Source: Longimicrobiales bacterium (GTDB lineage Bacteria > Gemmatimonadota > Gemmatimonadetes > Longimicrobiales > Gaopeijiaceae). From it: 64,000 nucleotides of DNA. The translations under genes were made by a program, and so were the position numbers. The notes under the pieces were generated by a model that was not told where the DNA came from, made no database searches, and saw only the letters and a list, made by a program, of their open reading frames with translations. Positions within the stretch are counted from its first letter, which is position 1; each line of letters begins with the position of its first letter. Of this stretch, positions 1 to 9,519 are shown piece by piece. Location: contig CBDAON010000004.1 of NCBI GenBank assembly GCA_965198065.1, positions 1,120,001-1,184,000 of the forward strand, given 5' to 3'.

Positions 1-1882
1 ACTCGCCCACGCCGATGTCCCCGATCGAGTACTCGCGCGCGTCGTGCCAGTCGACGTAGAAGGTCGGATCGGTCTCGTAGGCCGGCACGGCGAGGAGATC
101 CCCGAGCCTCCCCTTGATCTCCTTCTTCCCCACCCGCACGACCCACGAGCGGAACGTCTCGTCCGACTCACGCTCGGTCGTGTAAAGGTCGAGGAGCCGA
201 TCCACCGTCTCCGGGATCCGCTTGGACGGAACGGCACCCATGGCCAGCCCGTAGCTCCCCGCGTTCTCCTCGAGCGATCCGCCGAGAAGCAGCTGGAAGT
301 GGGGCACCTTGTAGGCGCCCACGTTCCGGCTCGAGCCGTAGAAGCCGATGTCGGCGATGTGATGCATCCCGCACGAGTTCGGGCACCCGCTCACCTTGAT
401 GTGCACGTCCTTGAGGACCGGATCCAAATGGAGCTCTCGCTCGTGCAGGCGCTCCCTGAGCTCGGCGCCAAGCCCGCGCGAGCTGGCGATCCCGAGCTTG
501 CAGGTGTCCGTGCCCGGGCATGCGGTCACGTCGGTGATCGTCGCCGCGCCCGTAGACACGAGCTTCGCCTCGTGGAGCTCGTTGTAGATAGCGACCAAGT
601 CCTTCTCGTGGATCCAGCGGAGGAAGAAGTTCTGGTCCACGTTCGTGCGGAGCGCGCCGGGAGCGTACTTCCGGACGAGGTCCGCGAGCCTGCGCGTCTG
701 ACGGGACGTGATGTCGCCCAGGGGAAGGTTGATCGTGACCGCCACGGACCCCTCTTGGCGCTGCCGGTAGACGTTCGTCTTCGACCACTCCTCGAACCCG
801 TCCGCCGGCACGGTCGACTCGTCGGTGACCGGCTCCGAGCGCCCCTCGATCTGGGGCAGGCGCGCCTCCTCGAGCCAGGCGTCCCAGCGCGGATCGGGCT
901 CAAGCGCAGACAGCTCCTCCTCCACCACGCACTTGAACTCGTCGATCCCGAGCTTGGCCACGAGGAACTTGATCCGGGCCTTGTTCCGGTTCCGCTTCTC
1001 GCCCAGCCGGGCGAAGACGCGGGCGATCGCCTGTGAGAGCGGGAGCATCTGGGCTTCCGGCATAAACTCGTAGAGCACCTTGGCCACGTGCGGGACGGGC
1101 CCAAGCCCACCGCCCACCACCACCGTGAAGCCCCGCTCCTCCACGCCGTCCACCTCCCGGGTCGCCGCGACGAACCCGAGGTCATGCATCATGACGCGGG
1201 AGCAGCCCTCATGTCCGCATCCGGAGTATGCGATCTTGAACTTCCGCCCGAAGTCCTGGACGTCCGGATGACCGAGGAGGAAGGAGGCCTCGGCCTTCGC
1301 GTAGGGAGAGATGTCGAAGCGCTCGTCCGTGCAGATCCCCGCCTTGGGGCAACCGGTGACGTTCCGGACCGAGTTCCCGCACGCCTCCCGTGTCGTGATC
1401 CCAACAGCGGCCAGGCGCCGGTGCAGATCCGGCGTGTCCTCGATATCGACGAAGTGCAGCTGGACATCCTGTCGGGTCGTGATGTGGAGGACCGCGTTCG
1501 AGTACTCCTCCGCGCAGTCCGCGAGGACCTCGAGCTGCTCGGCCGTGACCTGCCCGTACGGGATCTTGATCCGCTGCATTCCCGGCGCGTCCCATTCGGT
1601 CTCGGGCCCCTTCGTAAGCCCGAGGCGCCGGAAGGGGAGCTCCTGGGTCTTGGTCCCATCGTAGCGCTGACCGTTGTCGTAGCGCTGGCCGTAGGCGCCC
1701 CGCCGGAGGCGAAGCTCGGCGAAGACCTTGTCCTCGATCTTTCCCTGTTTCCGGAGCTCCATCTGCGCCTCGTAGGAGTCGATCTCCTCCGTCACGTGGG
1801 GAGGAATGCTATCCGCGAGCCGCACCTTCCAGCTCCACTGCCCCGGACTAGTCGCGCCGGTGTTCGTCTCGCCTGGGCTCAT
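1..1882 (-). CDS. sir: Ferredoxin-dependent nitrite/sulfite reductase (siroheme, 4Fe-4S); 3' end runs off the window
   Basis: Absent from the ORF track because it is open at the edge. Hand translation from ATG 1882 gives MSPGETN...ELRLRRGAYGQRYDNG...MQRIKIPYG...HITTRQDVQLH...REACGNSVRNVTGC...GRKFKIAYSGC...TACPGTDTCKLG...KVSGCPNSCGMHHIADIG. It lies directly downstream of cysH. Confidence 0.9.
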   Translation of the reverse strand, partial: MSPGETNTGATSPGQWSWKVRLADSIPPHVTEEIDSYEAQMELRKQGKIEDKVFAELRLRRGAYGQRYDNGQRYDGTKTQELPFRRLGLTKGPETEWDAPGMQRIKIPYGQVTAEQLEVLADCAEEYSNAVLHITTRQDVQLHFVDIEDTPDLHRRLAAVGITTREACGNSVRNVTGCPKAGICTDERFDISPYAKAEASFLLGHPDVQDFGRKFKIAYSGCGHEGCSRVMMHDLGFVAATREVDGVEERGFTVVVGGGLGPVPHVAKVLYEFMPEAQMLPLSQAIARVFARLGEKRNRNKARIKFLVAKLGIDEFKCVVEEELSALEPDPRWDAWLEEARLPQIEGRSEPVTDESTVPADGFEEWSKTNVYRQRQEGSVAVTINLPLGDITSRQTRRLADLVRKYAPGALRTNVDQNFFLRWIHEKDLVAIYNELHEAKLVSTGAATITDVTACPGTDTCKLGIASSRGLGAELRERLHERELHLDPVLKDVHIKVSGCPNSCGMHHIADIGFYGSSRNVGAYKVPHFQLLLGGSLEENAGSYGLAMGAVPSKRIPETVDRLLDLYTTERESDETFRSWVVRVGKKEIKGRLGDLLAVPAYETDPTFYVDWHDAREYSIGDIGVGE

Positions 1883-1946
1883 CGTTTGCCGTCCTGACTC
1901 GTCCCGCCGATTCACGTCGAGGTACGGGCTGGGTACCGTACCCTCG

Positions 1947-2732
1947 TCACAAGTTATGGAGCCCGCACTCTGTCCGGGTGCCCCCGCGCCACCGCCCCGC
2001 CCGCTCGTGCTCCCCCGGGAGCGTGGGCGTCGTGAGGGGCTCGTCCCCGATGCTCGCGTAGCCCTCGTCGTGGAGGGGATGATAGAGCACCCGGTTCACC
2101 ATGATGAACTCCCACACTTGGTCCAGGGTCCAGAGCGCGAGAGGGTTCACTTTCGTGCGGCCATTCTTCTCGACGATCGGAATCCCGGCTCGCGACTCCG
2201 ATTGGTCCCGTCGCCGGCCGCTGATCCACCCCTCGAAGCCGTCCAGCGCCCTCCGCATCGGCTCGACCTTCGTGAGCTGGTGGAACAGCTCCTCGTCCCG
2301 TTCCCAGAGGCGCTCCCCGTGCTGGGCCTCTAACGCCTCCCTCGACTTGGCGGCGGGGAACGTGCGGAGGTCGATCCCGTAGTGCTCGCGCACCCGCTCC
2401 GCATGCTCGAGGGTCTCCGGGAAGTGGTAGAGCGTATCCACGAAAAGCACGGGAGTGCGAATCCCCTCCTCCGCCAGCATGTGGATGAGGATCATCCCGC
2501 TGGGACCGAACGTGGACGACATCGCGACCCGGCCCTCGGGGAAGGCGGATGCGGCCCAGCGGAGCACCTCCCTCGGATCGGCTCCCTCGAAGTGGCGGCT
2601 GAGATCCGCGGCTTCCTCGGCGGTGAGAGAAGCCGATACGAACGGAGCCGGCGCCACCACCGGGTCCACCGCCCTGCCGTCCGCAGAGATGCCCATCGTC
2701 TCGACTCCGGCCCCCAGAATGTCCTCTCTCAC
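1947..2732 (-). CDS. cysH: Phosphoadenylyl-sulfate (PAPS) reductase
   Basis: Motifs SSTFG, DTLYHFPET, SGRRRDQ, KVNPLA, GYASIGD, ERAGRW and C-terminal ECGLH. The start may be GTG 2732 or ATG 2696. Confidence 0.93.
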   Translation of the reverse strand: MREDILGAGVETMGISADGRAVDPVVAPAPFVSASLTAEEAADLSRHFEGADPREVLRWAASAFPEGRVAMSSTFGPSGMILIHMLAEEGIRTPVLFVDTLYHFPETLEHAERVREHYGIDLRTFPAAKSREALEAQHGERLWERDEELFHQLTKVEPMRRALDGFEGWISGRRRDQSESRAGIPIVEKNGRTKVNPLALWTLDQVWEFIMVNRVLYHPLHDEGYASIGDEPLTTPTLPGEHERAGRWRGGTRTECGLHNL

Positions 2733-2905: not shown

Positions 2906-2989
2906 CTACGCGAAGTGTCTCCGGGACCCACCCCCAGCGGGGGAGGCCGGACAAGAACACATCGCGCAACACATCGCGGTCATAGCCAT
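2906..2989 (-). CDS. Putative Cys/Met-rich leader peptide, 27 aa (MAMTAMCCAMCSCPASPAGGGSRRHFA)
   Basis: ATG 2989 to TAG 2906. It has 4 Met and 4 Cys in the first 13 codons and sits between a promoter and a terminator upstream of cysH. Confidence 0.75.
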   Translation of the reverse strand: MAMTAMCCAMCSCPASPAGGGSRRHFA

Positions 2990-4898: not shown

Positions 4899-5726
4899 AT
4901 GACCCGAAAGCGACCGGGAACCGTATACCTCGTCGGGGCCGGCCCCGGCGACCCGGATCTTCTCACCCGAAAGGGCGCGCGGCTCCTGGCCGTGGCGGGT
5001 GCGGTCGTGCACGACGCCCTCATTGACTCCAGGCTTTTTACGGAGGTCGCGCCCGGCGCCGAGCTGTACGACGTGGGGCGGCGAGCGGGGACGAAGCGAC
5101 TGGACCAACCCCAAGTGAACGAGCTCCTGATCAAGCTCGCGGGGGTCCATGAGATCGTGGTTCGACTGAAGGGGGGAGACCCGTTTGTCTTCGGTCGTGG
5201 GGGAGAGGAGGCAATCGCGCTCAAGGCCGCCGGCATACCGTTCGAGGTGGTTCCTGGAGTCACGTCAGGGGGTGCGGTCCCCGCGTACGCGGGGATCCCC
5301 CTGACCCACCGGGGAGTGGCCTCGTCGGTGACGTTCCTCACCGGGCACCAAGTCACGTCTGCCCCGGAGGGGGCGGAAGCCTCGAGCCCCATCACCCGGG
5401 AGGGGACGCTCGTGATCTTCATGGGCCTCCTCAGGGTCGAGGAGATCGCGCGGGGACTGATCGAGCGAGGTCTATCGCCGGACACGCCGACGGCGGTGAT
5501 CCAGTCGGGGACCTACGCGTCCCAGCGGACCGTCACGGGAGTGCTGGCGGACATCGGGGAGCGGGCGCGGGCGGGTCGCATTTCGCGCCCCGCGCTCATC
5601 GTGGTCGGGGACGTCGTGGCGCTTCGCGAGGGGATCCGCTGGTTCCCCGAGGCGGGAGTCGAAACAGCGACCGGCAAAGGCCCCCCCGAGCGGGGAGTGG
5701 CTCAGGGCGCGGACAAAGCGAAGTGA
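4899..5726 (+). CDS. cobA: Uroporphyrinogen-III C-methyltransferase (SUMT)
   Basis: VYLVGAGPGDPDLLT, VRLKGGDPFVFGRGGEE, VPGVTS, AGIPLTHRG. ATG 4899 was preferred over the ORF-track start. Confidence 0.93.
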   Translation: MTRKRPGTVYLVGAGPGDPDLLTRKGARLLAVAGAVVHDALIDSRLFTEVAPGAELYDVGRRAGTKRLDQPQVNELLIKLAGVHEIVVRLKGGDPFVFGRGGEEAIALKAAGIPFEVVPGVTSGGAVPAYAGIPLTHRGVASSVTFLTGHQVTSAPEGAEASSPITREGTLVIFMGLLRVEEIARGLIERGLSPDTPTAVIQSGTYASQRTVTGVLADIGERARAGRISRPALIVVGDVVALREGIRWFPEAGVETATGKGPPERGVAQGADKAK

Positions 5727-5947
5727 GTGTAGTTCTTCTCGATGTAGGCCGTCCACTCCGGGGGCACGTCGGTATCCGGAAAGATCGCCTGAACCGGGCA
5801 CTCGGGCTCGCAGGCCCCGCAGTCGATGCACTCTTCGGGCTGGATGTAGTACTGGTCGTCCGCGTCGTAAATGCAGTCCACGGGGCAGACGTCCACGCAG
5901 CTCGCGTCCTTCGTGCCGATGCAGGGCTCGGCGATGATGTAGGTCAT
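5702..5947 (-). CDS. 7Fe-type ferredoxin ([3Fe-4S]+[4Fe-4S], FdxA-like), 81 aa
   Basis: MTYIIAEPCIGTKDASCVDVCPVDCI...CIDCGACEPECPVQAI. Its ATG overlaps the stop of the JAB gene (ATGA). Confidence 0.92.
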   Translation of the reverse strand: MTYIIAEPCIGTKDASCVDVCPVDCIYDADDQYYIQPEECIDCGACEPECPVQAIFPDTDVPPEWTAYIEKNYTHFALSAP

Positions 5948-6471
5948 AGACCGTCGGCTGAGGTAGTTCTTGCGCTTGAGTACCTCTCCTCCCCCCGACT
6001 CCGTTCTGCCGGAAGCTCCGACACGGGGACCCGCAGGGGCGACCCGGGCGCCGCCGGATTCCAGCGCCACGCCCCCATGGCCGCCCAGTCGTCCGAGGCG
6101 TCCTCCCCCACGATGAGCCAAAGCACTTCGGGCCACAGCTCCATGTATCCCCGATCGATCGAGGACGGAACCGGCCGCCCCACCGGGTGGGAGTGGTAGA
6201 ATCCCACGATCTCGTGCCCCGTTCCCCGGAGCGAGCGTTCCTCCTCGATCACCCGTCGAGGATCGATCGTGAACCGCGTTCGCCTTCGACCCGCCGGAGC
6301 CTCGTTGGGGCACGGGATCGCGCGCGTGACCCAGATGTCCCCGTCCTGGATCCGCCCCACCAAGAGCCCACACGCCTCGTCGGGAGACGCCCGTCTCGCG
6401 TCCTCCACCACGGTCCGCGAGACGTCCGGGGAGAGGTAGGCGCCCTCGGTCCACCCCTCCCCACCGCTCAC
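5944..6471 (-). CDS. JAB/MPN+ (M67) metallopeptidase, Mec/HcyD-like
   Basis: PDEACGLL and GFYHSHP-x4-PSSID JAMM motif. GTGA overlap with the upstream sulfur-carrier gene. Confidence 0.9.
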   Translation of the reverse strand: MSGGEGWTEGAYLSPDVSRTVVEDARRASPDEACGLLVGRIQDGDIWVTRAIPCPNEAPAGRRRTRFTIDPRRVIEEERSLRGTGHEIVGFYHSHPVGRPVPSSIDRGYMELWPEVLWLIVGEDASDDWAAMGAWRWNPAAPGSPLRVPVSELPAERSRGEERYSSARTTSADGL

Positions 6472-6758
6472 CAGTCGGGCCCCACACCCCCCGCGATGGA
6501 GGGAACGATGGATACCTCGTCGCCTTCCTTCACGGGCGTGTCCAGATCCTTCTCGTAACGGACGTCGGTGCCGTTCACGAACACGTTCAGGAACTGTCGC
6601 ACCTCGCCCTGCTCTCCGAGGATCCGGCCGAGGAGATCGGGGTGCGTACTCCCGAGGTCGTCGAACAGCTCCCGCACGGTAGCCCCTTCCGCCTGGAGCT
6701 CCGCCTGTCCGTTCGTGAGCTTACGAAGCGCGCTCGGCACTCGGACGGTAACGCTCAT
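6468..6758 (-). CDS. MoaD/ThiS/CysO-family ubiquitin-like sulfur carrier with a C-terminal extension
   Basis: MSVTVRVPSALRKLT...FLNVFVNGTDVR...VSIVPSIAGG-VGPDW. Confidence 0.92.
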   Translation of the reverse strand: MSVTVRVPSALRKLTNGQAELQAEGATVRELFDDLGSTHPDLLGRILGEQGEVRQFLNVFVNGTDVRYEKDLDTPVKEGDEVSIVPSIAGGVGPDW

Positions 6759-8032
6759 CCCTCTACCTCCTCGCTCGCGGCCAGTCGCTCCACCTCGGCG
6801 AGCCTCGGCTGGATGGGATCCTCCAGCCGGAACGTGCCGCGCGCGGCATCCGGAGTCTTGAGCCCGTTCCCCGTGATGCAGAGAACGGTGGGTCCGTCAC
6901 GCCGGAGCCGACCGTCCCGGACCAGGCGCGCCGCAGCGGAAACCGTAACGCCTCCGGCCGTTTCCGTGAAGACGCCATCCAAGGTCGCCAGCAGGCCGAT
7001 CCCGTCAACGATCTCCGGGTCGGACACCGCCTCCCCCCAGCCTCCGGTCTCCTGGATCGTCTCCACCGCAAACAGACCGTCCGCCGGATTTCCGATCGCG
7101 AGCGAGCGTGCGATGGTGTTGGGTTTCTGAATCGGCCGCACCTGCCGCTCTCCGGCCTGCACCGCGTTCACGATGGGTGCGCAGCCCGACGCCTGTGCGC
7201 CGAACATCCGGGGCTCCGGACCCTCCTCGACGAGGCCGGTCTTCATGAGCTCGCGGAAGCTCTTCCGAACCTTCGTGATGAGCGACCCGCCCGCCATGGG
7301 GACGACGACGTTCGCGGGCAGCGTCCAGCCGAGCTGCTCGGCGATCTCGTACCCCATGGACTTCGAGCCCTCGCTGTAGTAGGCCCTGAGATTGACGTTC
7401 ACGATTCCCCATCCGAACCGGTCCGCCACCTCCGCACAAAGCCGATTCACATCGTCGTACACCCCCCGTACGCGGACCACCCTCGCCCCGTGCACGCCCG
7501 TCGCAACGATCTTTTCCACCTCCAGGTCCTCGGGAATGAAGATCCAGGCGCGGAGGCCCGCGGTCGCGGCCTGTGCGGCCACCGCGTTCGCTAGGTTGCC
7601 TGTCGACGCGCATCCGACCACGTCCATGCCGAACTCCCCCGCACGTTGGAGAGCGACCGCAACGACTCGGTCCTTGAACGACTGCGTCGGATGGTTCGAC
7701 GAGTCTACCTTGATCCAGAGATCATCGATGCCCAGCGCGGCTCCCAGCCTCGGAGCTCGGAGGAGCGGCGTCCACCCGACCCCGAGCCCGCGGGTCGGCT
7801 CCTCGGCAACGGGCAGGAGCTCGCGGTACCGCCACAGGTCGGTAGGTCGCGATGCGATCCTCTCCCGCGTGAGCCGACCGCGGAGCCGCTCAAGATCGTA
7901 GACGACCTCTAGAGGACCAAAGCACTCCTCGCAGACGTGATGCGGGCCGGCTTCCGTCTCCGTCCCACAAATTCGACATCGAAGCGTGCTCAGCGCCGCG
8001 GGGGCGAGGGGTGCCAAGTTCGTCTCGCTCAT
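6755..8032 (-). CDS. thrC: Threonine synthase-like PLP enzyme with an N-terminal Zn ribbon
   Basis: CRIC...CEEC, LWRYRELLP, PTQSFKDR (PLP lysine), CASTGNLANA, EGSKS, ITGNGLKT. Start at ATG 8032 with a GAGG RBS. Its real substrate may not be threonine-related. Confidence 0.88.
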   Translation of the reverse strand: MSETNLAPLAPAALSTLRCRICGTETEAGPHHVCEECFGPLEVVYDLERLRGRLTRERIASRPTDLWRYRELLPVAEEPTRGLGVGWTPLLRAPRLGAALGIDDLWIKVDSSNHPTQSFKDRVVAVALQRAGEFGMDVVGCASTGNLANAVAAQAATAGLRAWIFIPEDLEVEKIVATGVHGARVVRVRGVYDDVNRLCAEVADRFGWGIVNVNLRAYYSEGSKSMGYEIAEQLGWTLPANVVVPMAGGSLITKVRKSFRELMKTGLVEEGPEPRMFGAQASGCAPIVNAVQAGERQVRPIQKPNTIARSLAIGNPADGLFAVETIQETGGWGEAVSDPEIVDGIGLLATLDGVFTETAGGVTVSAAARLVRDGRLRRDGPTVLCITGNGLKTPDAARGTFRLEDPIQPRLAEVERLAASEEVEG

Positions 8033-8150
8033 CGCCTCTATCGTCTCCTGCGCGGTCTGGCCCAAGGGCGGCCCACCCGCGCCGTGTCCACCGCCCGGAG
8101 GCGCCGAAAGATCGCGAGAAACGCGTTCCCGGCAACCCGCCGGCCTCCTT

Positions 8151-8197
8151 AGAAAAAGGAAAGAGCCCCGACCTCTCTGGAAGAAGGCCGGGGCTCT
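8151..8197 (-). terminator. Intrinsic terminator of the putative thrC-like operon attenuator
   Basis: Minus strand reads AGAGCCCCGGCCT-loop-AGGTCGGGGCTCT (13 bp with one G-U) then TTCCTTTTTCT. Confidence 0.8.
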
Positions 8198-8220
8198 CTC
8201 GCTCCGTCGGGTCCGCTTGC

Positions 8221-8328
8221 CTAGCGCCTGGCGCCTCCGGACACGACCGTCCCCGATGCGCCTTCCTCCATGGAGGAAGCCGACATCGAACAACGGCACA
8301 TGCACATGTAGCCGCGAGCGACCCGCAT
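8221..8328 (-). CDS. Putative Cys/Met-rich leader peptide, 35 aa (MRVARGYMCMCRCSMSASSMEEGASGTVVSGGARR)
   Basis: ATG 8328 to TAG 8221, with SD GAGGAG at 8344-8339 and an MCMCRCSM control-codon cluster, followed by a terminator. Confidence 0.75.
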   Translation of the reverse strand: MRVARGYMCMCRCSMSASSMEEGASGTVVSGGARR

Positions 8329-8375
8329 TATCGTCCGACTCCTCTGCTTCGGATGAGCGGCCCCGACGAGCGCAA

Positions 8376-8404
8376 ACGGTACCGAAGCAGGCCAGAGGCG
8401 TCAA
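8376..8404 (-). promoter_or_regulatory. sigma70-type promoter TTGACG-17bp-TACCGT for leader/thrC-like operon
   Basis: -35 at 8404-8399, -10 at 8381-8376, 17-nt spacer. The -35 hexamer matches the cysH leader promoter. Confidence 0.65.
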
Positions 8405-8610
8405 GTCTCTGACCCACACCTCGGACCGCGTCCAGTTGACCTCGCTGTGTGCCGCGTCTAGTCTCGTCAGGCGCGAACGCCGGGCTCGTCCTCTCCGCCG
8501 AACGAAAGGTACGTGCCGGCCCGACGGACGTGTCCTGTGAGGACATCTCCCATGACCATGTCGCTCTCTCGGTACCCCGCCCACGCCCTGGCGCCGCTCG
8601 AGGAGCGCCC

Positions 8611-9519
8611 GTGAGCGAGCCACTGCCCCCCGTCGGCTTCCTCGGCCTCGGAATTATGGGCGAGGGGATGGCCCGAAACCTCCTCGGGGCCGGCTTCCCG
8701 CTCACCGTGTGGAACCGCACGGCGCCGAAATCCGCCGCCCTGGCGAAGGAGGGGGCGACGCTCGGACGGGGTCCGGCCGACGTGGCCGAGCGCTCCGACA
8801 TCGTCTTCGTCTGTGTGAGCGATACGCCCGATGTCGAGGAGGTCGTGCTCGGGCCGGGCGGTGTACTCGTTGGCGCGCGTGCCGGCAGCCTGGTCGTGGA
8901 CATGAGCACCATCAGCCCGGCGACGACGCGGGAGATCTCGAGGCGGCTCGGTGAGGGCTCTGTCCACATGCTGGACGCTCCGGTGAGCGGAGGGAGCGAG
9001 GGGGCCCGAAAGGGCACGCTGAGCATCATGGTGGGGGGCGATGCCGATCAGGTCGAGCGCGCCATGCCGGCTTTCCGGGCGATGGGAAAGACGATCACGC
9101 ACGTGGGCCCAGTCGGAGCAGGGCAGACCGTGAAACTCGTGAACCAGATCGTGGTCGTCGTGAACATGCTGGCCGCCGCGGAGGGACTGCTCTTCGCGGA
9201 GGCCTCCGGGGTCGACCTGACCAAGACGCTCGAGGCGATCACGGAGGGCGCCGCGGGGAGCTGGATGCTCCAGAACCGTGGCCCGCAGGTCGTCGCGCGG
9301 GACTGGCGCCCCGGGTTCATGGTGGACCTGCAGCAGAAGGATCTCCGACTCGCACTCGAGGCCGCGGACGAGTTGGGAGTCCCCCTGCTCGGCACCGGGC
9401 TGGTGTTCCAACTCTACCGTACGCTCCAGCAAGCCGGGCTCGGGCGCGAGGGGAACCACGCCCTGGCCAAGGCGCTCGAACGACTGGCAGGATTCGAGAT
9501 CGGCACCGGCGGCGTCTGA
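8611..9519 (+). CDS. NAD(P)-dependent beta-hydroxyacid dehydrogenase (tartronate semialdehyde reductase / 3-hydroxyisobutyrate dehydrogenase family)
   Basis: GFLGLGIMG, DAPVSGG, GTLSIMVGG, KLVNQ, KDL. GTG start at 8611. Confidence 0.9.
   Translation: MSEPLPPVGFLGLGIMGEGMARNLLGAGFPLTVWNRTAPKSAALAKEGATLGRGPADVAERSDIVFVCVSDTPDVEEVVLGPGGVLVGARAGSLVVDMSTISPATTREISRRLGEGSVHMLDAPVSGGSEGARKGTLSIMVGGDADQVERAMPAFRAMGKTITHVGPVGAGQTVKLVNQIVVVVNMLAAAEGLLFAEASGVDLTKTLEAITEGAAGSWMLQNRGPQVVARDWRPGFMVDLQQKDLRLALEAADELGVPLLGTGLVFQLYRTLQQAGLGREGNHALAKALERLAGFEIGTGGV

Follow-up and report, generated by a model that had tools for sequence, protein, structure and literature searches.

The window, that is, the whole stretch of 64,000 nucleotides analysed here, carries on its minus strand a short run of genes headed by a thrC-like gene. 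A preliminary description had placed upstream of this gene a Shine-Dalgarno motif GAGGAG, a leader peptide, a long internal hairpin around a perfect palindrome (8262-8279) and a terminator, and had proposed that the leader senses Met and Cys, not Thr and Ile. All of these elements were found (GAGGAG at 8344-8339, the ORF at 8328-8221, the terminator stem at 8200-8159), the internal hairpin corresponding to the 1:2 hairpin at 8296-8247. From upstream to downstream, the features are as follows.

8399..8404, minus strand: putative -35 box, sigma-70-like, recognised by eye, with a 17-nt spacer to the -10-like box
8376..8381, minus strand: putative -10 box, recognised by eye; transcription would start near 8369
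8339..8344, minus strand: Shine-Dalgarno-like GAGGAG, 10 nt before the ATG at 8328, predicted to lie mostly in a hairpin loop
8221..8328, minus strand: leader ORF of 35 codons with four internal Met and three Cys codons
8284..8307, minus strand: control-codon cluster (codons 8-15), with Met10, Cys11, Cys13 and Met15 inside or bordering the modelled switching window
8247..8296, minus strand: 1:2 hairpin (anti-antiterminator), -29.0 kcal/mol, with the palindrome 8279-8262 as its top
8179..8269, minus strand: predicted 2:3 antiterminator, -45.1 kcal/mol by folding
8151..8200, minus strand: intrinsic terminator (3:4 hairpin) with T run, -32.1 kcal/mol
6755..8032, minus strand: thrC-like PLP enzyme of 425 amino acids, over the cut-offs of NCBIfam PRK08197 and TIGR00260; probable MetM (homocysteine synthase) by context and tree
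6468..6758, minus strand: MoaD/ThiS-type sulfur carrier with Gly-Gly followed by a five-residue tail, probable MetO
5944..6471, minus strand: JAMM/Prok-JAB protease, probable Mec
5702..5896, minus strand: 4Fe-4S ferredoxin, last gene of the run

The leader ORF lies ahead of the terminator and has Met at codons 8, 10, 15 and 20, Cys at codons 9, 11 and 13, a single Thr at codon 27 and no Ile, in agreement with the earlier observation of one Thr near the end of the peptide and no Ile. It is a short upstream ORF with a start, a stop and control codons clustered beyond chance, and it is conserved; it is not the Thr/Ile-rich leader that precedes thrABC in a thr attenuator. Its count of seven Met and Cys codons was reached by none of 3000 dinucleotide shuffles of 8369-8201 (best count, six). 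A scan of the genome returned 261 terminator-like sites, 112 of them with a short upstream ORF, and the two ORFs richest in Met and Cys among these 112, with seven such codons each, were this one and the ORF at window position 2989. The leader RNA folds better than 200 of 200 shuffles (z -3.58). An Rfam search of the leader, SAM aptamer models included, gave no meaningful match (best E 2.3), and a reading of the leader as a SAM riboswitch was rejected for lack of Rfam support. The promoter-like boxes (8404-8399 and 8381-8376), the first of which coincides with the end point 8404 of the region described earlier, score below the cut-off of the promoter scan; the -10-like hexamer recurs upstream in most homologues of the family. 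Only small shares of two RNA runs are present as contigs; one of these contigs spans 8202-8530 and, because it extends past the predicted promoter, is uninformative on transcription and termination.

Alternative hairpins and the predicted switch

The terminator consists of a stem of 17 pairs (8200-8159) followed by the T run, and is the sole terminator-like site in 7900-8800, shuffled sequences giving 0.3 +/- 0.6. The top of the 1:2 hairpin is the perfect palindrome of 18 nt, and the 3' arm of this hairpin (8269-8260) can alternatively pair with 8188-8179, which corresponds to the upper 5' arm and the loop of the terminator. In the predicted antiterminator this pairing is extended by three further helices, among them 8255-8251 with 8193-8189 and 8247-8239 with 8214-8206. 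According to the folding model, antiterminator and terminator are mutually exclusive, and a ribosome stalled at the control codons frees the antiterminator.

The switch was modelled on a transcript cut before the 3' arm of the terminator, with ribosome footprints of 6-12 nt and with equilibrium, not co-transcriptional, folding. The modelled probability of the antiterminator is about 0.8 only with a ribosome stalled from codons 10-12 through codons 17-19, and about 0 when no ribosome is present or the ribosome is past codon 23. Whichever of the three footprints is used, the switching window includes Met15 and Cys13; it takes in Met10 and Cys11 with the longer footprints. On this model, translation through to the leader stop would leave the ribosome covering region 2 and let the terminator form, and a ribosome stalled at about codons 10-18 would open the 1:2 hairpin, so that region 2 could pair with the 5' arm and loop of the terminator and permit read-through. 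Shortage of charged Met-tRNA, and to a lesser degree of Cys-tRNA, would in this way let RNA polymerase read into metM-metO-mec-fdx.

In an alignment of 14 homologues, 93.9% pairing and compensatory changes are seen in the top helix of the 1:2 hairpin, and the complete 1:2 structure scores above 500 of 500 shuffles in both pairing and covariation, a result that related sequences can give even without a structure. The antiterminator (86% paired) and the terminator (84%) both beat slid controls in the same 14 homologues, where their covariation does not rise above that of shuffles. When the model was applied to the 23 Gemmatimonadota-type leaders, a default-off state combining the 1:2 and 3:4 hairpins in the absence of translation was predicted for the window leader and four others. 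In 16 of the 23, the antiterminator was predicted at a probability of at least 0.7 even without a ribosome, so the clean switch of the window leader is not general in equilibrium models; L066, L067 and L072 are examples of leaders predicted to be on by default. In this comparison the zero value at the stop codon is a consequence of the measure used.

Conservation of the leader and SAM riboswitches in relatives

Orthologues were sought in 61 relatives, 401 genomes of the phylum, 401 genomes of the order and two contig collections, and conservation was assessed on 24 non-redundant orthologues with at least 64% identity and upstream DNA, four duplicate and three partial loci being left out; the related genomes counted are kin and not independent. 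The closest named relatives are Gemmatimonadota (76-77% identity). A leader followed by a terminator precedes 22 of the 24 genes, and the remaining two directly follow an upstream ORF. The upstream ORF, on whose conservation among orthologues the preliminary description had made its reading depend, is therefore conserved. The 24 orthologues form one clade (support 98 in a quick tree of 97 rows), and two further leaders, L053 and L091, stand outside it. The latter (L091:3763-3901, plus strand) is a candidate Met/Cys leader of 21 codons with a terminator, before a Verrucomicrobiota orthologue; it did not fit the fold model and possibly has an independent origin.

Codon make-up was determined on the 23 Gemmatimonadota-type leaders, L091 being left out. 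In frame, these contain 9.6% Met, 6.5% Cys, 7.0% Thr and 2.2% Ile, against 1.2, 3.4, 4.7 and 2.1% expected from base composition, the Met and Cys shares being somewhat inflated because leaders were selected by the highest Met plus Cys. As Met drops to 0.1-0.3% in the other reading frames and Cys reaches 8.2% in frame +1, Met is the clean signal and Cys the weaker one; of the two control codons claimed earlier, Met is thus robust. All 23 leaders have internal Met, and 69 of 73 Met and 43 of 49 Cys codons lie 15-29 codons before the stop, with Thr evenly spread. Met outnumbers Cys in 15 leaders, equals it in three and is outnumbered in five; three leaders are devoid of Cys and one has nine Met. 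The near-absence of Thr holds for the window leader and does not extend to the homologous leaders in general, as seven of the 23 leaders have four to six Thr codons and Thr is not depleted. The sole Thr codon of the window leader reads Met in a relative at 94% (one contig, depth 4). When the ORF starts of 14 homologues are aligned, the indels inside the ORF keep the frame.

More distant orthologues, devoid of the leader, carry SAM-I (RF00162) or SAM-II (RF00521) riboswitches. SAM-II occurs near the metM-like gene in 11 of 20 loci (about 1 kb upstream in three of them), and 17 loci chosen partly on a motif screen yielded SAM-I in 13 and SAM-II in three. At five loci (L008, L009, L053, L071 and L074) SAM-II and the leader stand in tandem before the same gene. 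A search for SAM-II in the genome under study gave no match, as did its control. Upstream of metH (G000:C4:1952470-1952580, plus strand; L322) we noticed by eye a SAM-II-like motif with a terminator-like hairpin, which had no Rfam match up to E 1 and is possibly a divergent SAM-II variant. Other leaders were seen back to back with the metM leader, on the divergent strand: a Thr/Ile-rich one before an aspartokinase gene in L007 (L318), and a Phe-rich one with a terminator in L009.

The sulfur-carrier operon, its pathway and a second leader

Beyond the ferredoxin gene lie cobA/cysG, a chelatase-like gene, cysH, a sulfite reductase-like gene and, just outside the window, a moeZ-like gene. The arrangement is the one expected for MetM and MetO, a thrC-like PLP enzyme adjoining a Gly-Gly carrier, together with Mec and MoeZ. 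A quick tree places the enzyme with actinobacterial proteins whose genes are led by SAM-I, separating them from 16 paralogues with a support of 100. A PDB search with the enzyme returned no solved MetM, the best matches being threonine synthases (E 1e-55); the active-site differences from threonine synthases seen in this alignment were not used as evidence. The predicted complex of the enzyme with the sulfur carrier scores 0.49 against 0.02 for the best control, with at least 77% of contacts shared between runs and a partner pLDDT of at least 84; scores of 0.60 or less that reach the mark were obtained for 18 of 157 solved complexes and for both mismatches that passed, so the model lends weak support to the pairing. 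By a rough count, 20 of the 22 loci with a JAMM gene have a sulfur carrier with a tail after Gly-Gly, and 46 of 48 tail-less carriers are in loci without a JAMM gene, a few tails being mis-parsed and the loci short.

The preliminary description had suggested looking for a second, canonical thrC. A separate thrA-thrB-thrC set is indeed present in the genome, behind a leader with seven Thr and one Ile codons and a similar terminator (G000:C4:2472857, minus strand), and its thrC (G000:C4:2467900-2469210, minus strand) reads as frameshifted in the assembly in a three-frame reading. Another PLP gene (C4:1569350-1570211, minus strand) also reads as frameshifted, and a third thrC-like gene (G000:C3:41867-45473) lies beside a group II intron with a reverse transcriptase-like ORF. 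Among the carrier genomes of the family, 15 of 16 have the N-terminal domain of E. coli-type thrC, mostly in open frames of at least 440 amino acids. Since the leader is conserved, a real thrABC stands elsewhere and orthologues are under SAM riboswitches, the leader probably senses sulfur amino acids and the thrC-like gene is probably not the threonine synthase, as had been proposed.

No metX, metA or cysE was detected in the genome, which is 87.6% complete. It encodes metH, a CBS-like gene, cysK, thrA and thrB, and only two PLP enzymes of Cys/Met metabolism, both most like cystathionine gamma-lyase. The cysK gene (G000:C4:2017268-2018377, plus strand) scores over its cut-off, and neither cysE nor a metX-like acetyltransferase gene was detected alongside it in the genome. 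In one order sample, MetX-like matches, none of them over the curated cut-off, occurred in two of 27 carrier genomes and in 128 of 374 non-carriers, the genomes being kin and not independent; cysE was found in none of 24 carrier genomes searched. Both a supply of O-phosphohomoserine (thrA, thrB) and methionine-type regulation in orthologues are thus present. We infer a pathway in which ThrA and ThrB would supply O-phosphohomoserine, CysH, sulfite reductase and MoeZ would load sulfur onto the Mec-trimmed carrier, and MetM would make homocysteine, to be converted into Met by MetH and possibly into Cys by CBS and cystathionine gamma-lyase. As homocysteine could feed both amino acids, this would account for the reading of both Met and Cys codons. 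The earlier assignment of the enzyme to cysteine or homocysteine synthesis is therefore upheld as to the sulfur route, homocysteine being the more likely product, and the MetM type of enzyme has already been published.

A second leader of similar make-up lies further along the same strand.

2906..2989, minus strand: second leader ORF of 27 codons with three internal Met and four Cys codons
2852..2880, minus strand: terminator behind the second leader
1947..2732, minus strand: cysH (APS/PAPS reductase)
2..1915, minus strand: sulfite/nitrite reductase-like gene, running off the window; the moeZ-like gene follows at G000:C4:1118827-1117598

This leader has -35- and -10-like boxes at 3027-3022 and 3004-2999, its start codon lies 9 nt past the -10 box, and its modelled switch works too. 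Among 19 loci compared, 13 have a leader of this kind ahead of cysH (10 recognised by pattern, three by eye), and Cys outnumbers Met in 12 of the 13 (by eye). A Met/Cys ORF before cysH in L297 was dropped, being the antisense of the L053 leader. With a second, Cys-biased leader before cysH, two sister attenuators that differ in bias appear to control the sulfur pathway. The genome also has a His-rich leader and terminator before hisG (G000:C4:1280962, minus strand), and Thr leaders (Thr 15.5%, Ile 5.5%) were found in 13 of 23 aspartokinase loci from the carrier genomes, so leader-peptide attenuation looks common in the lineage. A similar stem in the met, cys and thr terminators hints at a common scaffold. 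A short ORF at G000:C4:1740393 (plus strand), which has a run of three Met codons and one Cys codon and is accompanied by a terminator, is separated by several hundred bases from an amino-acid/dicarboxylate symporter-like gene downstream (labelled by eye) and is a possible third member of the Met/Cys leaders.

Alternative readings and known attenuators

Taken together, sequence comparison and fold modelling make it probable that the region is a ribosome-mediated transcription attenuator reading Met and Cys codons, with Met dominant, on a MetM/MetO homocysteine operon in Gemmatimonadota. Mycobacteria make cysteine from O-phosphoserine and a sulfur carrier by the CysM/CysO/Mec route, and an attenuator that mainly senses Cys, before an enzyme of this kind, would agree with the lack of cysE in the 24 carrier genomes, with the Cys majority in five of 23 leaders and with the operon lying beside sulfate-assimilation genes. 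This alternative is unlikely in view of the three leaders lacking Cys, the one with nine Met, the SAM riboswitches of orthologues and a gene content in which CBS-like, cystathionine gamma-lyase-like and cysK genes are present and no other homocysteine route was found. Still less probable is an enzyme that is, or doubles as, a threonine synthase, with Thr codons contributing to control in part of the family. Such an enzyme would pass the NCBIfam threonine-synthase cut-offs as this one does, the genome's own E. coli-type thrC reads as frameshifted, seven leaders have four to six Thr, and a cyanobacterial homologue 51.6% identical to MetM showed threonine synthase activity in vitro (PMC12172450). 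Against it speak the even, unclustered distribution of the Thr codons, the Met codon that the 94% relative has in place of the single Thr (one contig, depth 4), the further thrC-like gene on contig C3 and the E. coli-type thrC domain in 15 of the 16 genomes.

Two other readings concern the mechanism. TnaC is a nascent peptide that arrests the ribosome in response to Trp, and we give very little credence to an arrest of this type on a metabolite, with tRNA charging secondary: the 14 homologues of the family have similar peptides in the C-terminal half, but this similarity maps onto the antiterminator helices and is lost in another family, and the model predicts termination to be favoured when the ribosome is arrested close to the stop. 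It is just as improbable that the ORF is untranslated and the leader an undescribed riboswitch or protein-binding RNA responding to SAM or a sulfur compound, the Met and Cys codons being a by-product of RNA conservation. In favour of this reading, pairing keeps the base sequence of the ORF's 3' half conserved, naked RNA can be in equilibrium between alternative folds, and the Shine-Dalgarno-like motif is weak or missing in four of 24 leaders. On the other side, leaders of another family that are unlike in DNA (by eye) keep the start, the stop, the length and the Met/Cys cluster, both Cys codons are used (30 and 19 times), the same design occurs with Thr and His codons in the same genome, and Rfam offers no match.

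The attenuator reading places the leader beside the classical leader-peptide transcription attenuators trpL, thrL and hisL of E. coli. It shares with them a control-codon ORF, the 1:2, 2:3 and 3:4 hairpins and an intrinsic terminator before a biosynthetic operon, a design also found at the genome's own thr and his operons. It differs from them in its Met and Cys control codons, its longer ORF, the position of the stop codon in the antiterminator loop and its phylum, Gemmatimonadota. A thr leader of Pasteurellales with Met codons is reportedly mentioned by Vitreschak and co-workers (2004). The E. coli attenuators are described in PMC4007540, and table S9 of the same source lists Deide_09379 of Deinococcus deserti as a predicted Met leader before the Met-tRNA ligase gene. 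Another predicted Met leader, metL of Streptomyces lividans, precedes metNIQ without a typical intrinsic terminator (PMC8079986). Both resemble the window leader in having Met (and Cys) codons in a short leader ORF, and differ in their targets, an importer and a synthetase in place of biosynthesis; at the window leader all hairpins of the set are present and conserved. Cys-sensing leaders include the mycobacterial polycysteine sORFs (bioRxiv 10.1101/834739; PMC1262725) and uORFC-8-2 before cysS (PMC8632094). In them, as would be the case here, ribosomes stall at Cys codons, and a single signal is common to several loci; the cysH leader of the window is similar to them, but the mycobacterial ones act on access to the ribosome-binding site without an intrinsic terminator, and none of these published leaders is Met-dominant in the passages at hand. 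SAM-I and SAM-II riboswitches occupy the same place before orthologous genes but sense SAM directly, without translation, and the window leader matches neither. Swaps between sensor types are covered in PMC2965389, with no Met leader among them in the excerpt used. The literature search, which left subscription literature outside its scope, turned up no case of Met/Cys attenuation acting on methionine-biosynthesis operons or occurring in Gemmatimonadota, and the only Met leaders it returned were the predicted ones before metG and metNIQ.

As to the enzymes, the window resembles the MetM/MetO/Mec/MoeZ route from O-phosphohomoserine that Hasebe and co-workers reportedly described in Streptomyces albulus in 2024, since a thrC-like enzyme, a MoaD-type carrier, Mec and MoeZ all lie within 11 kb, the likeness being one of context and tree. 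GapMind 2026 includes the conversion of O-phosphohomoserine into homocysteine by MetM, MetO, Mec and MoeZ among tested routes, and points out that annotations frequently call MetM a threonine synthase (PMC13759103). In S. albulus a SAM riboswitch precedes metM (PMC12172450), whose product has the UniProt accession A0A059WBP2; here a leader peptide takes the place of the riboswitch. The surprise is limited, because both the enzyme route and the mechanism class are known: the type of mechanism is classic, and what is unusual is its use on a pathway whose relatives have SAM riboswitches. To classical attenuation the locus adds Met/Cys specificity with a complete terminator and antiterminator design on a biosynthetic operon.

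We tentatively suggest, while considering it less probable than its contrary, that one Gemmatimonadota lineage swapped a SAM riboswitch for a Met-sensing ribosome attenuator by way of tandem SAM-II-plus-leader states, that sulfur control was split over a Met-biased leader for metM-metO-mec and a Cys-biased one for cysH, sulfite reductase and moeZ, and that failure of initiation also leads to read-through. As the antiterminator wins without a ribosome in most homologues, failed initiation under Met scarcity would give read-through as well, which would solve the problem that Met starvation strikes the leader's own start codon. At this locus it can be tested directly whether attenuation can be driven by elongator Met codons; its leader would correct the thrC misannotation independently of protein similarity, and the orthologues appear to display a riboswitch-to-attenuator swap with intermediates.
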